DNA of 64,000 nt from Patescibacteria group bacterium (lineage in GTDB: Bacteria > Patescibacteriota > Minisyncoccia > Minisyncoccales > RBG-13-36-15): assembly GCA_018609195.1 (NCBI GenBank), contig JAHCSE010000001.1:9559-73558 (forward strand), read 5' to 3'. Of this stretch, positions 14,114 through 63,512 are shown in pieces. The notes beneath the pieces were generated by a model. It was not told the DNA's origin. It saw only the letters and a list, made by a program, of their open reading frames with translations, and did not search any database. Both the position numbers and the translations under genes were made by a program. Position 1 is the first letter of the stretch. Each line of letters starts with the position of its first letter.

Positions 14114-14132
14114 ATTGTTATTACAGAGCGAA

Positions 14133-14271
14133 GTCGCTCGCCCTCCTCCAGCCTTTGGCTGGCGGTCGCCTTCGGCGACCTTCGGGCTCGCTCTTTAGAA
14201 ACCCTCGGTTTCTAACACTCGCTTCGCTTGCTGTTTTCCTACACGGGAGAACCTATGGTTCTCCCGACCCC
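14133..14271 (-). repeat. module A element, copy A1 (4 hairpins)
   Basis: Sense strand: GGGGTCGGGAGAAC-CATAG-GTTCTCCCGTGTAGGAAAACAG..TTAGAAACC-GAG-GGTTTCTAA..GTCGCC-GAA-GGCGAC..CCAGCC-AAA-GGCTGG..AGGAGGGCGAGCGAC. Confidence 0.85.
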
Positions 14272-14923
14272 TCTCCATTTTGGGCAGCAAATTGGGTTTC
14301 AGGAATGTCTCTTTTATTATATTTATTGATTCTTTAGGTATTAATAAATATTTGAAAGAAAGTAAGTCCAAGGGATTTAAATCTTTAGTCTGGGTAGTTT
14401 CTACTTTAGGAATATTTTTTGAGGCTCTAATGACAGCTTCCTCTTTTGTAGGAAGAGCAATCAAACAAGATGCTTTTTTTATTGGTAGATTATTTAAAAT
14501 CTCAACAATCAATTTTGTCTTTGGTTTATCTAATTTTAAAGAATCCAAAAGAACTATTAAATTTTCTTTAGCTTTCGTTGATAATACCATAAACAAAGCT
14601 TTTCTTCTCATTTTTTTAGGAATTTTTTGCTTAAAAACTCTCGTTTTTCTTGGTCCAAAAGTGATTCCTCCTCCTCGCCAGATTGGAGAACGAATAGAGC
14701 CTGCCCTCGCTCTCCCTGTTCCTTTTTGCCGCCAGGGTTTTCTTCCTCCACCCCGAACCTCAGCTCTAATTTTGGTATGAGCGATAGGAATCCTTCTATT
14801 TGCCATCTGGCTCACCACTACCTGATGTACTAAATCAGGATTGATTTTCACATCAAAAATTTCTTTTGGTAATGAAGTTTTCCCAACTTCTTTTCCTTCT
14901 TGATTGTAAGTCTTAATAAACAT
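14195..14923 (-). CDS. rplD: 50S ribosomal protein L4 (C-terminus reads into repeat A1)
   Basis: L4 motifs (RGGGRKPWRQKGTGRAR). There is no stop before the repeat, so the last ~25 codons (..ERGRENHRFSRVGKQQAKRVLETEGF) are encoded by element A1. Confidence 0.9.
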   Translation of the reverse strand: MFIKTYNQEGKEVGKTSLPKEIFDVKINPDLVHQVVVSQMANRRIPIAHTKIRAEVRGGGRKPWRQKGTGRARAGSIRSPIWRGGGITFGPRKTRVFKQKIPKKMRRKALFMVLSTKAKENLIVLLDSLKLDKPKTKLIVEILNNLPIKKASCLIALPTKEEAVIRASKNIPKVETTQTKDLNPLDLLSFKYLLIPKESINIIKETFLKPNLLPKMERGRENHRFSRVGKQQAKRVLETEGF

Positions 14924-15900: not shown

Positions 15901-15990
15901 GTCGCTCCGCTCCTTAGAAACCCGCGGTTTCTAACGCTCGCTTCACTCGCTGTTTTCCTACACGGGGAGACACCCAGTCTCCCCGACCCC
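15901..15990 (-). repeat. module A element, copy A2 (short form, hairpins 1-2)
   Basis: Sense: GGGGTCGGGGAGAC-TGGGT-GTCTCCCCGTGTAGGAAAACAG..TTAGAAACC-GCG-GGTTTCTAA-GGAGCGGAGCGAC. Confidence 0.85.
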
Positions 15991-17847: not shown

Positions 17848-17925
17848 CTATTTCCTCTTTCCCTCAATGATCTCCTGAGTAATATTCTGAGGTACTTCTC
17901 CGTAATGGTCGAATTCCATCGTAAA
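17848..17925 (-). pseudogene. orphan second copy of the last 25 codons + stop of fusA
   Basis: Encodes [25 protein letters not shown] versus the fusA end [25 protein letters not shown] (22/25 aa identical, 54/78 nt identical). Confidence 0.85.
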
Positions 17926-18089
17926 GTCGCTCCGCTCCTCCAGTCTTCGGCTGGCGCTCCCCGCCAACATCTTCGAAGTTGTGGCGGGTCGCTTCGCTCC
18001 GCTCCCCAGACACCTCTCGGTTTCTGGCGGTCGTCGCTTCGCTCCTCCCTGTTTTCCTACACGGGAAAACACCCAGTTTTCCCGACCCC
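17926..18089 (-). repeat. module A element, copy A3
   Basis: Sense: GGGGTCGGGAAAAC-TGGGT-GTTTTCCCGTGTAGGAAAACAG..CCAGAAACC-GAGA-GGTGTCTGG..two further hairpins..GGAGCGGAGCGAC. Confidence 0.85.
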
Positions 18090-18120: not shown

Positions 18121-20256
18121 TTATCTCCGTTTGCCTTCTATAATTTCTTGTGCGATGTTCCCTGGCACTTCACCGTAGTGATCAAACTCCATAGTAAACG
18201 TTCCTCGGCCTTCGGTCATCGATCGCAAAGCTGTGGCATAACCAAACATCTCAGCCAGAGGAACTTTAGCTGAAATTATTTTCAAATTTAACCTATCTTT
18301 TGTTTCTTCAATCTTCCCCCTCCTCGCTCCTAAATCCCCAATAGTATCTCCAAAAAATTCAGAAGGAATAATTACTTCTAATCTCATTATCGGTTCAAGT
18401 AAAATAGGTTTTGCTCTTTTGGCGGCCGTTTGCAAAGCAGCAGATGCAGCTATCTTGAAAGCAAATTCTGAGGAATCAACCTCATGATAGGAACCATCAT
18501 AAAGAGTCACTTCGATGTCAACCATAGGATAGCCTGCAGTTATCCCTTTTTCCATAGCTTCCTTCACTCCTTTTTTCACAGCGGGGATAAATTCTTTTGG
18601 GATGATTCCTCCTTTAATCTCGTCGATAAATTCAAATCCCTCTCCTCGTGTTTTGGGCCGAATTTTCAAGAAAACATGACCATATTGGCCTCTGCCGCCT
18701 GATTGTCTAATATATTTTCCTTCAGCTGAAGTTTCCTCTTTTATTGTTTCTTTATAGGCAACCTGAGGTCTTCCGGATGAAGCTTCCACCTTAAATTCTC
18801 TTCTCATTCGATCATTAATTATCTCTAAATGGAGCTCCCCCATTCCTGAGATAATAGTTTCTCCCGTTTCTAAATCACTTTTAATTTTAAAAGTGGGGTC
18901 TTCCTCAGCCAATCTTTTCAAAGCTAAACTCATTTTCTCTTGGTCGGCCTTCGTTTTCGGTTCAATTCGAATGGAAATGACAGGTTCTGGAAAGGTAATT
19001 TTTTCTAAGACAATGGGGTTATCAGGGTCACAAAGAGTATGACCAGTACTAGTTTTTTTTAATCCAACCGTAGCCCCAATATCTCCAGCGAAAAACTCTT
19101 GTACTTCCTCACGATCTGCCGCATGCATCCTTAAAATTCTCCCAATTCTCTCTTTCTCGCCCGTAGTTGCATTTAATACATAAGAACCTCTTTTTAAGCT
19201 ACCTGCATAAACTCGGAAATAATTTAAAGTTCCAACATAAGGATCAGCAGCAGATTTAAAAACCAAAGCGGAAAATGATTCTGAATCTAAAACTTTTCTT
19301 TCAATTTCCTGACCATTTCGAGGATCAACTCCTCTCACCGGAGGTAAATCCAAGGGGCTAGGCAAAAAATTCACAATTCCATCTAAGAGAGGCTGAATTC
19401 CTTTATTTCTCAAAGCTGATCCACAAAATACCGGGATGAGTTTGTAGGAAATTGTGGCTTTTCTCAATACTTCTCTCAATTCATTGATTGAAATTTCCTT
19501 TTTGGCTAAGTATTTCTCTAAAAGTTTCTCATCTTCAGCTGCAATTTTCTCCACTAATTTTTCTCGCCACTCTTTAGCGATCTTGCGCAAATTTTCAGGT
19601 ATCTCTTCTTCAACAACATTCTGGCCAAAGTCACCTTCAAATTTTAAGGCTCGCATTGTAAAGAGATCAATCACTCCTTCAAAATTTTCCTCGCTACCAA
19701 TTGGTAATTGAAGAACCACCGCCTGGGGAGATAATTTTTCCCAAATTGATTGCAAGCTCTTTTCAAAAGAAGCTCCTGTCCTATCCATTTTATTGATAAA
19801 GCAAATTCTGGGAACAGAAAATCTATCTGCTTGATGCCATACCGTCTCAGATTGAGGTTCTACTCCTGCTACTCCATCGAAAATCACTACCGCCCCATCC
19901 AAAACTCGCAAAGATCTTTGTACTTCCGCTGTAAAATCAATATGGCCAGGAGTATCAATAATGTTTATTCGATACTCATCTTTTTTGCTTTTTTCTTTGG
20001 ATTGACCGGGGGCGGTGTGTGGGTGATAGGTGGATGGAGTCCAAAAACAAGTAGTGGCTGCAGCTGTAATAGTAATTCCCCTTTCTTTTTCTTGAATCAT
20101 CCAATCCATTATTGCCTCCCCTTCATGAACTTCTCCAATTTTATGAGAAATTCCAGTATAGAAAAGCACCCGCTCAGTAACGGTTGTTTTCCCAGCATCG
20201 ATATGAGCAATAATACCAATATTGCGAGTTCGTTCTATTGGATACAAACGAGGCAT
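18121..20256 (-). CDS. fusA: elongation factor G
   Basis: [17 protein letters not shown] and NKMD motifs; 711 aa. Confidence 0.97.
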
Positions 20257-20287: not shown

Positions 20288-20436
20288 AGCGAGGGTAAGC
20301 TTCTCAAAGAGCATCTCGGAGGCGTCGCTGGCAAGGTGTCCGAGTAAAGCGAGGAACAGCGACGCCGAGAGTTGAACAAAATTTTCCTCGCTGGGAAAAA
20401 TTATTGTGTCTCTTTGAGGGGGCTTTGCCCGAGCGA
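20288..20436 (-). repeat. module B element, copy B2 (149 nt)
   Basis: See B1. Contains a 10-bp stem GGCGTCGCTG/CAGCGACGCC and a long-range stem CTCAAAGAG/CTCTTTGAG. Confidence 0.85.
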
Positions 20437-20452
20437 ATCACCAAGCCAAATG

Positions 20453-20603
20453 GTCGCTCGCCCTCCTCCAGCGCAGAGCGCTGGCGGACGCCTTTGGCGT
20501 CCTTCGGGCTCACTCCCCAGACACCTCTCGGTTTCTGGCGCTCCTTCGCTTTCGCTCAGTCACTGTTTTCCTATACGGGGAAACACCCAGTTTCCCCGAC
20601 CCC
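20453..20603 (-). repeat. module A element, copy A4
   Basis: Sense: GGGGTCGGGGAAAC-TGGGT-GTTTCCCCGTATAGGAAAACAG..CCAGAAACC-GAGA-GGTGTCTGG..GACGCC-AAA-GGCGTC..CCAGCGC-TCT-GCGCTGG..AGGAGGGCGAGCGAC. Confidence 0.85.
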
Positions 20604-44602: not shown

Positions 44603-46030
44603 TTAAAATTTGCTTTTCGGCCCCTCAGATCCTGGTTTATACATTTTCAAAGGGGAAAGATTTTTTTGCCAACCTTTTAAAATTTGATCAATAAATCGCC
44701 AGCTATTCAGAGTCTCTCCGGTACTGACAAACAAAGTCTGATCACCCAAAAAAGAATCAATTAAAAGTTTTTCATAGGCTTCTAAAAGTTTTGCTTTGGG
44801 ATAGGCTTCTTGATAAATAAAGTGGAAAGTTTTTTTCTCAATTTCCATTTTTGGTCCTGGCTTTTTGACATTAAAACAATAGGATATGCCTTCTTTAGGT
44901 TGAATTTGAAAACATAAAGTATTTTTATAATGTTCTAACTCAGCTGGTGGACAAAAAAGACAAGGAGTGGTTTGTCTAAAAGTGATTAAAATCTCAGCTA
45001 CGTCCTGGTTTAATTTTTTACCACTTTCTAAATAAATAGGGACTCCCTCCCACCTTGGATGATGTAAAAAAGTCTTGATTTTAAAATAAGTCTCTCTCCG
45101 GGAATGGGGTTTAACTCCTGGGATTTCCAAATAGCCCTGGTATTGCCCTCTTACCGTATTCATTTTAATATCTTTTTTCGTCATTTTGGGGAGATATTTC
45201 AAAATCTCCGCTTTTTTTTCTCTAATCTCTTGGGGAGCTAAGTTAGGAGGAGCATCCATTGTGATTAAAGCCAGCATTTGTAAAAGGTGGTTTTGGCCAA
45301 CATCTCGTAAAGCCCCGAGGGGATCATAGAATAATCCTCTCTTTTCCACACCTTCTTTCTCCAAAAGCCTTATTTCAATTTTTTCAATAAAATCTTTGTT
45401 CCAGAGATTCTCAAAAACTGAGTTGGCAAAACGGAAAACTAATAAATTGGAAATCGTCTCTTTGGCTAAATAATGGTCAATTCGGAAAACCTGAATTTCT
45501 TTAAATAATTTGCCTAAAAGTTGATCCAACTTCTGAGCTCTCTCTAAATCTTGGCCAAAAGGCTTTTCCACCAAAACTCGAGTCCACCCTTCCTCAGGAC
45601 TACAAGGTTGCGTCAAACCGGATTTAGCTAAATTTTTAAAAATTATTTCATAATAATTTGGCGGGACAGCCAAATAAAATAATTTATTGGCACAAGTTCG
45701 AAATTTTCCATCAATGTGGCCTAATTTTTTACCTAGTGCAAAATAGCTTTCCATATTTTCAAAAAGCCCTGGTTGGTAGGAGAATTTTTTCAAAAGATCC
45801 TCAACCTTTGGGCTTTTTTTTAATAAATTTTTTCTTAACCAACCTTGATATTCTTTTTCTGTAAAATTTTCTTTTGCAAAACCAATAACTTGAAACATCT
45901 TTGGCAGAAAACCAGTTTGAGACAAATGCAAAATGCTTGGGAGTAATTTCCTTTCCATCAAATCTCCAGTGGCTCCAAAAATTATTAAAATCGTTGGGAA
46001 ATTTTCTAATTTCCTTTCAAGATTTTTCAT
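44603..46030 (-). CDS. zwf: glucose-6-phosphate 1-dehydrogenase
   Basis: FGATGDLMERKL, RIDHYLAKE and EKPFG motifs. Confidence 0.92.
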   Translation of the reverse strand: MKNLERKLENFPTILIIFGATGDLMERKLLPSILHLSQTGFLPKMFQVIGFAKENFTEKEYQGWLRKNLLKKSPKVEDLLKKFSYQPGLFENMESYFALGKKLGHIDGKFRTCANKLFYLAVPPNYYEIIFKNLAKSGLTQPCSPEEGWTRVLVEKPFGQDLERAQKLDQLLGKLFKEIQVFRIDHYLAKETISNLLVFRFANSVFENLWNKDFIEKIEIRLLEKEGVEKRGLFYDPLGALRDVGQNHLLQMLALITMDAPPNLAPQEIREKKAEILKYLPKMTKKDIKMNTVRGQYQGYLEIPGVKPHSRRETYFKIKTFLHHPRWEGVPIYLESGKKLNQDVAEILITFRQTTPCLFCPPAELEHYKNTLCFQIQPKEGISYCFNVKKPGPKMEIEKKTFHFIYQEAYPKAKLLEAYEKLLIDSFLGDQTLFVSTGETLNSWRFIDQILKGWQKNLSPLKMYKPGSEGPKSKF

Positions 46031-46287
46031 AGATACTTAAGTTCTTTTACGTATGTGAGCCAGGGTTTTATCTCCACTGTCACCTGCTTTCCAGCGAATT
46101 CGTTTCGCTTCATATCTTCTAAAATCTCAGTATTTATCTCGCATTCTTTGCATTCACTCTTTATTGTAATGCCGAATTTACTTCCTGCCCAGCACCAGAG
46201 CGAAGCTCGGTGCTGGGCTAGTCCCGCACCGAAACAAAGTTTCTGGTGCGGGGCCCAGAGATACATTGTAATTTTTACTGATTTCAT
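46027..46287 (-). CDS. small protein (86 aa) carrying an in-frame palindromic GC-rich insertion
   Basis: ATGA overlap with zwf. Residues ~13-35 (APHQKLCFGAGLAQHRASLWCWAG) are encoded by two GC hairpins. Confidence 0.45.
   Translation of the reverse strand: MKSVKITMYLWAPHQKLCFGAGLAQHRASLWCWAGSKFGITIKSECKECEINTEILEDMKRNEFAGKQVTVEIKPWLTYVKELKYL
46186..46258. repeat. double-hairpin GC-rich palindromic element inside a CDS
   Basis: CCCAGCACC-AGAGCGAAGCTC-GGTGCTGGG and CCCGCACC-GAAACAAAGTTTCT-GGTGCGGG. Shares the GCGAAGC motif with module A. Confidence 0.75.
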
Positions 46288-58810: not shown

Positions 58811-58837
58811 AGAATGTATCTAATAAATTTACGTTTA

Positions 58838-58895
58838 GGCCTGCCTGCCCCGTAGGGAAGCGAAGCTTCTCCTTCGGGGCTTAATCTTACAGGCC
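58838..58895 (-). terminator. nested GC hairpin after the SPFH gene
   Basis: GGCCTG..CCCCG..GGAAGC-GAA-GCTTCTCC..CGGGG..CAGGCC. Contains the GCGAAGC mini-hairpin motif. Confidence 0.5.
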
Positions 58896-63390: not shown

Positions 63391-63512
63391 GGGGTCGGGA
63401 GGATTGGGTATCCTCCCGTATAGGAAAACAGGCTTTCAGGTGAGCGAAGCGAAGACTGAAAACGTTAGAAACCGTGGGTGTCTAAAGAACATGGTGCCGA
63501 GCGTTAGCGAGG
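63391..63512 (+). repeat. module A element, copy A6 (opposite orientation)
   Basis: Plus strand: GGGGTCGGGAGGAT-TGGGT-ATCCTCCCGTATAGGAAAACAG..GAGCGAAGCGAAG..TTAGAAACC-GTG-GGTGTCTAA.. Confidence 0.8.

Follow-up and report, generated by a model that had tools for sequence, protein, structure and literature searches.

How did a pair of perfect GC-rich hairpins come to lie inside a small protein-coding frame of an AT-rich genome, and does that frame still belong to a working gene? The question is raised by an 86-amino-acid open reading frame (ORF; 46027..46287, minus strand) in the 64-kb stretch of Patescibacteria DNA analysed here (hereafter the window), where the stop codon of the ORF overlaps the start codon of zwf, the gene for glucose-6-phosphate dehydrogenase (44603..46030, minus strand; Pfam G6PD_N and G6PD_C). 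The reading that we favour, with a probability of roughly 0.8, is that a dispersed repeat of 66 bp, carried in frame and read through, has one of its copies in the double hairpin, and that this copy resides in what is likely a non-functional remnant of a thioredoxin-fold gene.

A double hairpin inside a small reading frame

Read on the plus strand, the segment at 46186-46258 is TGCCCAGCACCAGAGCGAAGCTCGGTGCTGGGCTAGTCCCGCACCGAAACAAAGTTTCTGGTGCGGGGCCCAG. Its coordinates and fold bear out the two perfect GC stems that a preliminary description, made from the letters of the window, had placed within the ORF: stem 1 pairs 46187-46196 with 46209-46218 (10 bp), stem 2 pairs 46223-46230 with 46245-46252 (8 bp), and both extend inward into hairpins of approximately 13 bp, each closed by a triloop. 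For the transcribed strand, the folding energy is -50.3 kcal/mol (z = -5.6; equalled by none of 200 shuffles), each stem pattern has a single match in the window and is absent from all of 100 window shuffles, and the GC content of the element region reaches 62–63% (60-nt windows) as against 33–42% in 2-kb windows. Because the outer arms of the two hairpins are complementary to each other, the whole segment is dyad-symmetric, with 13-nt terminal inverted repeats of the MITE kind (46187-46199 and 46242-46254, 92% complementary); it can equally be described as a REP-dimer-like unit, with two stem-loops of about 30 nt each and a spacing of 5 nt.

The element proper spans 66 nt (46188..46253), with the plus strand as its consensus orientation and the host gene on the minus strand. 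Hairpin A (46188..46217) has an outer stem (46188-46196/46209-46217), a bulged A at 46197, an inner stem (46198-46201/46205-46208) and the triloop GAA (46202-46204), and gains an extra pair (46187/46218) in the window copy. The linker CTAGT (46218..46222) departs from the consensus CCAGT by a C-to-T change at 46219, which creates TAG in two of the six frames, neither of them the one used by the ORF. Hairpin B (46223..46252; outer stem 46223-46230/46245-46252, inner stem 46231-46235/46239-46243, triloop AAA, bulged T at 46244) is near-invariant across all ten aligned copies. The motif GCGAAGC, reported earlier in the first loop, does occur there (46200-46206) and is not conserved among the other copies, the triloop at this place being GAA, AAA or GGA. 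Compared with the consensus of copies in other genes, the window copy is 98.5% identical, and it scores 99.4 bits under a covariance model of the 66-nt element.

Directly after the element, CCCAG (46254..46258) repeats its first five nucleotides (46188-46192), so that the flanks read cctg/CCCAG...GGGG/cccag; the empty site would have held a single CCCAG, and the repeat represents either microhomology or something akin to a target-site duplication (TSD). These end repeats and the dyad symmetry are possible traces of a palindrome that arose on the spot, by template switching or hairpin-primed duplication, and that is unique to this locus, as could also be argued from the finding that neither blastn-short nor the covariance model located a second copy within the 64-kb window. 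We give such a local origin a negligible probability: it is refuted by the recurrence of the same 66 nt across numerous unrelated genes and genomes, a second gene of the window genome among them. As a member of this family, the window copy is atypical in its reverse orientation, its Cys/Trp-rich peptide and its CCCAG on both sides.

Insertion into a truncated thioredoxin-like gene

The earlier claim of an in-frame insertion holds up against orthologs of the 86-aa protein, from which the segment is missing (P0002-P0005, 102-104 aa): all four, two of which are labelled Patescibacteria, read ITMYxWAGSKFG where the window protein reads ITMYL-WAPHQKLCFGAGLAQHRASLWC-WAGSKFG, so that exactly 22 codons, or 66 nt (46188-46253), are absent from the orthologs at this point. 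The insert amounts to 22 residues, approximately 12-33 (codon 12 to codon 34), rather than to residues 13-35 as first given. DNA alignment with two loci that lack the element, L001 and L004, shows a gain of 66 nt with the CCCAG repeat on either side. Some orthologs bear the label Candidatus Nealsonbacteria, and the exact 86-aa sequence is found on contigs of several samples, one of them 750 kb in length.

Gene order in L001 is as in the window (redoxin, DsbD, Thioredoxin_10 protein, small gene, zwf), with the 4-nt overlap kept; L004 has the order redoxin, DsbD, small gene, zwf in common with the window, and an overlap of 14 nt. The ATGA overlap of the ORF with zwf, which had been pointed out before, is present as the reverse complement of 46027-46030 and is ancestral by comparison with these relatives.

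Pfam returned no match for the 86-aa ORF, the family of which is recognizable only through its orthologs. In a profile search, 144 cluster representatives match a domain of ~100 aa, mostly over almost its full span; the window protein covers just positions 1-64 of 102. Pfam Thioredoxin_3 is matched by 24 of 43 family members, and an AlphaFold (AF2) model of ortholog P0005 (pLDDT 94.8) matches thioredoxins at a TM of ~0.65 with a probability of 1.00. Measured against this family, the window ORF comprises 57 native N-terminal residues, the 22 inserted residues, which lie in the loop after strand 1 of the thioredoxin fold, and the tail VKELKYL. It has suffered a second in-frame loss of ~114 nt (~38 codons, near 46048-46051; roughly ortholog positions 57-95), through which KPWLTY is followed directly by VKELKYL, a tail similar to the final residues of the orthologs, and it stops at the ancestral ATGA. 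Near-invariant family residues are Y9, G13, C24, C27, W54, G65, P70 and Q81; the CxxC motif, formed by C24 and C27, is kept as CKEC, and G65, P70 and Q81 are deleted. In terms of the P0005 model, H58-63, E71-74, E77-81 and most of H87-101 are missing, and the ORF does not make up a complete thioredoxin fold with its Pro loop and C-terminal strand-strand-helix unit.

What is retained of the host is 74–81% identical to the orthologs and diverges no faster than its neighbours (zwf, the Thioredoxin_10 gene and DsbD are 76–80% identical to those of L001), with every conserved residue of that part still present, which points either to recent damage or to an ORF that continues under constraint. Judged by its sequence, the ORF would not clearly count as degenerated in the manner of a pseudogene. 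Most likely, the host gene is a non-functional remnant, and the small ORF is better reread as a truncated thioredoxin-like remnant ahead of zwf than as an intact insert-bearing gene. The copy in the window is of the rare reverse-frame type and lies in a small thioredoxin-fold gene from which the C-terminal half of the fold was lost separately.

The loss of half of the fold, together with hairpins that are very stable on the transcribed strand, could also suggest that the ORF is not translated at all and forms a leader of zwf in which the hairpins act, say, as an RNA stabilizer or processing site. We consider this unlikely, given that both indels are in frame with the ORF still ending on the ancestral ATGA, that the retained part keeps all its conserved residues, that a terminator-like match is weak (5 pairs) and uses neither perfect stem, and that Rfam at E ≤ 10 yielded zero matches on the element. 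The frame of the remnant may have been maintained through translational coupling to zwf, translation of which starts at its stop codon, an idea put forward alongside the two in-frame indels and the observation that no obvious Shine-Dalgarno sequence is seen upstream of zwf.

Since the host has lost about half of its fold, its open frame says little on tolerance in a functional protein. The wider suggestion that GC-rich palindromes can be tolerated inside coding sequence is sound for the element family, on account of its copies in the genes for L21 and peptidyl-tRNA hydrolase, whereas the window ORF from which it was drawn is a weak example.

A dispersed family in unrelated coding genes

A six-frame peptide search of a protein database recovered 33 element-carrying proteins, with approximately 17 distinct, unrelated sites in at least 14 protein families. 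Hosts include L21 (rplU; 5 clusters), peptidyl-tRNA hydrolase (Pth; 5 clusters, one with two copies), YbeY (3 clusters), TsaE (2 clusters, one with two oppositely oriented copies) and a SAM-methyltransferase (8 clusters). Single matches were obtained for dUTPase, a UvrC-like protein, Sua5/YrdC, LigA, DegV, LigD-N and DUF5678, and the element is found as well in a membrane protein and in a protein starting MxxSYNWL, which resembles PheT by eye and which we take to be a putative PheT. At the DNA level, a scan of metagenome contigs for the two-hairpin pattern produced a one-mismatch copy in frame inside pth (L131/L132), a variant copy outside all listed ORFs (L130) and, as a third kind of match, a related stem in a pilin leader (L127/L128). 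All recovered DNA copies are exactly 66 nt long and 94–100% identical to the consensus. The family consists of a GC-rich, dyad-symmetric repeat of 66 bp, composed of two stem-loops of ~30 nt and dispersed in a clade of AT-rich Patescibacteria.

Solved structures locate the insert within two of these proteins: residues 126-144 of the Pth query are inserted between residues 135 and 136 of chain 5zx8, and residues 55-75 of L21 are extra, as a clean insertion. Element sites may serve as natural insertion-tolerant positions in conserved proteins.

The window genome contains at least two copies, which differ at 3 of 66 positions: that of the window ORF and that of a methyltransferase (P0013) on the same 750,154-bp contig. 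The number of copies appears to be low: the 750 kb contain at least two, the 64 kb of the window contain one, and a search of 227 kb of loci with the covariance model added none; these counts carry a bias against intergenic and diverged copies, as copies were detected mainly via proteins. A degenerate stem pattern run on genome contigs matched GC-rich hairpins of high-GC genomes, such as those of Streptomyces, and its single match in Patescibacteria (L052) was rejected as unlike the element. Scanning viral contigs for hairpin B gave 0 matches.

Two further loci deserve mention. At 788-826 of L128 (and in L127), the leader of a type IV pilin-like protein (…GAGLPSTVKNGAGFTLIELLVV) has the stem CCCAGCACC/GGTGCTGGG beside an arm GGTGCGGG; it may represent a partial or decayed copy, or else the likeness may be due to chance, through codons for Gly-Ala-Gly and Pro-Ser-Thr. 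In protein P0030, on a contig of 1975 bp, an N-terminal part of LigA continues through the element into the C-terminal tail of a methyltransferase, and this tail matches that of P0027 exactly. The join probably reflects chimeric assembly, or else recombination, at the repeat, and it implies that LigA of that organism carries a copy of the element. An apparently chimeric contig of this sort calls for caution on the part of annotators and assemblers.

Filled, empty and mosaic alleles

At TsaE, the filled allele L137 shares 92% identity with the empty allele L143, from which it is set apart by an indel of precisely 66 nt and no TSD. They coexist in metagenome sample 3300032020, which makes the internal copy a strain-level presence/absence polymorphism, and both carry a further, reverse-orientation copy at the N terminus. 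A flanking repeat is absent from 7 of 8 copies, the window copy alone having CCCAG at both ends; in the same proportion (7/8), the left flank ends in an A-rich run (for example, AAA), with the window copy again as the exception. As we picture it, the element would enter coding genes as exactly 22 codons and leave no TSD.

The methyltransferase site offers a broader view of gain and loss. Among the best 120 orthologs, 99 are empty and 12 have the full 22-residue element; another four have only inserts of the PSTRAKLGAG type (10 aa), which correspond to hairpin A, two have 12-residue inserts, one of which (PAPYRNEVSGSG) is hairpin B-like, and three have variants of 14, 17 or 19 aa. All of these inserts are located at the same site, between EK and EF. 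We suggest that copies may decay over time by way of in-frame partial deletions.

P0013, the methyltransferase encoded on the contig of the window ORF, is a mosaic. Over the first 135 residues, it shares 96% identity with the empty allele P0182, while the flanks of its element are 65% and 44% identical to P0182 and 87% and 80–94% identical to filled alleles (N-termini of the latter, 62–82%). The mosaic indicates that the element came with flanking sequence by homologous recombination, and copies may pass between lineages with host sequence in this manner; if so, the element could be used as a marker of recombination between uncultured lineages.

At the DNA level, the breakpoint of this mosaic lies ~65 nt upstream of the element, where identity to the close relative L146 falls, to remain low across ~700 nt of a variable pilin/GIY-YIG region. 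We considered homing driven by the element itself and leave it as unproven, the recombined tract of L134 extending ~700 nt past the element through this region. Stand-alone ORFs of a GIY-YIG nuclease domain (86-93 aa; L134, 11009-11269; L145, 10151-10432) lie 0.4–3.3 kb from two element-bearing genes, that of L134 within the segment non-homologous to L146; to link them to the mobility of the element would be pure speculation. The Pfam-annotated genes of the fetched loci include no Y1/HUH transposase, and no transposase or nuclease for the element was identified in these loci.

Frame, orientation and conservation

The consensus is stop-free in all six frames, a property of only 2.5% of composition-matched shuffles. 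A copy of this kind would be read through and translated as an extra loop of its host protein. At 15 of 17 sites, the element is found in one orientation and one frame and encodes the Gly/Pro/Lys-rich peptide (K)PSTRAKLGAGPVPHRNKVSGAG; all 15 independent '+' sites are in phase 0, and the orientation ratio of 15:2 has a binomial p = 0.002. If insertion were directed to AAA, 39% of sites would be expected at a codon boundary, and 0.39^15 is ~7e-7. The reverse frame, PHQKLCFGAGLxQHRAxLWCW, is represented at two sites only, the N-terminal tail of TsaE and the window. The peptide of the '+1' frame is as hydrophilic as the favoured one, hence hydropathy alone does not account for the frame bias. Copies would, in our model, persist mostly in the one orientation and frame that give PSTRAKLGAGPVPHRNKVSGAG.

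These properties bear on whether the insert reaches the protein at all. It might be skipped, through a translational bypass like that of mitochondrial 'byps' or through excision from the mRNA, and, with its GC-rich hairpins amid AT-rich DNA, it does recall the yeast mitochondrial GC clusters (PMC8811140). We regard skipping as very improbable: byps are passed over by the ribosome, whereas copies of the element keep the frame open, being 66 nt and hence a multiple of three, stop-free in the frame of the host and strongly frame-biased, all of which would be needless in a skipped insert.

Ten aligned copies display four one-sided changes that are G-U-compatible and one that is disruptive; a covariation test detected no compensatory pairs among these ten, the variation being too little. 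The hairpins are conserved, and selection for pairing is unproven. At orthologous sites, the element is 95.5–97% identical in nucleotides and the host genes 68–74%, a contrast that is in part an ascertainment effect, as the copies were found by similarity to the query. We toned down a description of the element as 'hyper-conserved', because methyltransferase orthologs show truncated and diverged derivatives at the same site.

Could selection maintain the 22-residue peptide as a functional module, such as a flexible, basic loop in contact with RNA or with a partner? The strong dominance of a single frame and orientation would suit such a role, as would a net charge of ~+4, the many hosts that act on RNA or the ribosome (L21, Pth, YbeY, TsaE, Sua5) and inserts that are 95–97% nucleotide-identical where the host gene is 68–74%. 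We judge it quite unlikely on four counts. Synonymous positions and opposite-frame copies are conserved as well, which places the conservation in the DNA and not in the peptide; the insert is missing from 99 of the best 120 methyltransferase orthologs and truncated or diverged in others; presence and absence vary between close relatives; and the conservation figure is inflated by the search itself.

The preferred reading, a dispersed repeat carried in frame and read through, allows a possible extension that we offer tentatively: the element may be specialized for life inside the coding sequences of ultra-small genomes with scant intergenic space. What leads to this idea is the fixed length of 22 codons, the lack of stops in any frame and the occurrence in essentially one orientation and frame. 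Spread between lineages would then proceed via DNA uptake and homologous recombination of the flanking gene, not classical transposition. Such a homing-like route, if true, would explain why diverged orthologs are occupied at identical sites and why copies are 95–97% identical when their host genes share only ~70% identity. Another possibility is that translation-related proteins have co-opted the basic 22-residue loop as a functional add-on.

Comparison with known palindromic elements

In-frame 'protein-coding palindromes' were reportedly first described as a peculiarity of Rickettsia and later recognized, as intragenic REPs, in a few other bacteria. A very compact and unrelated family in rplU (L21), pth, ybeY and tsaE of Patescibacteria would extend selfish DNA within proteins to reduced genomes beyond the Rickettsiales. 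Full-text searches, with incomplete coverage of journals, turned up no description of such palindromic elements or MITEs in Patescibacteria, the Candidate Phyla Radiation or Parcubacteria.

Like MITEs, the element is short, of a non-autonomous type and provided with inverted termini; unlike classic MITEs, it has no TSD, as seen in the exact 66 nt that separate the TsaE alleles. Palindrome-associated elements derived from IS200/IS605 generate no TSD and insert beside a short target motif. The hairpin at each end, the missing TSD and the A-rich left flanks (7/8) are reminiscent of this type, in which, however, guide sequences sit outside the hairpins; the element is too compact to accommodate them. 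The fetched loci yielded neither a parent IS nor a TnpA for the element.

By analogy, the closest known systems appear to be Rickettsia palindromic elements (RPEs) and intragenic REP dimers. RPEs (Ogata et al. 2000, 2002, as related in PMC10969869) are palindromic repeats in frame in unrelated housekeeping genes, where they add a conserved peptide and keep the ORF, and they are regarded as selfish DNA tolerated by the fold (PMC10969869). The 66-bp element resembles them in lying in frame in ORFs of unrelated function and in adding a conserved peptide. By description, it differs in several respects: RPEs are ~100–150 bp long and occur in Rickettsia at tens of copies per genome, whereas the element is 66 bp long, belongs to Patescibacteria, is represented at least twice in the single 750-kb genome assessed and is GC-rich in an AT-rich genome. 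It is also without the CGTC tag found at the end of the RPEs examined in PMC3733652.

Intragenic REP dimers are stem-loops of 20–40 nt, often paired, that encode 20–30 amino acids (PMC3733652), and some of them are found in repair or replication genes at conserved positions (PMC3733652). The element is likewise an intragenic pair of stem-loops, with 22 residues encoded. Unlike REPs, its consensus and window copy have none of GTAG, CTAC, CGTC and GACG; its detected copies lie mostly within genes rather than outside them, with detection biased towards coding copies; its copy number is not high (one per 64-kb window, none extra in 227 kb); and no RAYT is seen in the fetched loci, unlike in REP systems.

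The GC clusters of yeast mitochondria, among which are in-frame insertions in var1 and the bypassed 'byps' (PMC8811140), have in common with the element GC-rich palindromes in an AT-rich genome and an in-frame size polymorphism of a coding gene (PMC8811140). As a further likeness, they propagate through gene conversion and give rise to new variants by merging or shuffling (PMC8811140). Unlike the element, they belong to a eukaryotic organelle, lie for the most part between genes and usually carry AG/TAG repeats at their ends, which are read as TSD (PMC8811140).

Other GC-rich hairpins of the window

The preliminary description had taken the tail of ribosomal protein L4 and the ORF insert as common evidence for one class of GC-rich palindromes. 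The two part company: the L4 hairpin belongs to a different family, and we rejected the L4 tail as a copy of the 66-nt element because the covariance model matches none of the L4-type hairpins. In L4 itself (14195..14923, minus strand), homology to uL4 ends near residue 206 of 242, where solved homologs end, and a C-terminal extension of ~35 aa runs into the hairpin at 14244-14266. Its family, with the stem CGGGRRRAC...GTYTCCCCG, recurs in perfect hairpins at 15963-15985 and 20576-20598, both in intergenic spacers of ribosomal-protein genes, and at 63396-63418.

The sole match of the element model to another hairpin of the window is a weak one (27.9 bits, E 0.004), to an intergenic single GC hairpin at 58836-58879 with a GAA triloop and GCGAAGC; it may be a distant single-hairpin relative, or unrelated.

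GC-rich multi-hairpin clusters (65–78% GC) occupy spacers of the ribosomal-protein/EF operon at 14123-14201, 17920-18066 and 20427-20546. They have modules such as CTCCCCAGACACCTCTCGGTTTCTGGCG and CGCTCGCCCTCCTCCAGC in common with one another, and only the 9-mer GAGCGAAGC (GCTTCGCTC on the other strand) in common with the 66-nt element. Downstream of fusA (18121..20256, minus strand), a 74-aa ORF (17848-18072, minus strand) has an end that nearly duplicates the fusA C terminus, and the cluster at 17920-18066 lies between this near-duplicate and the fusA C terminus itself.
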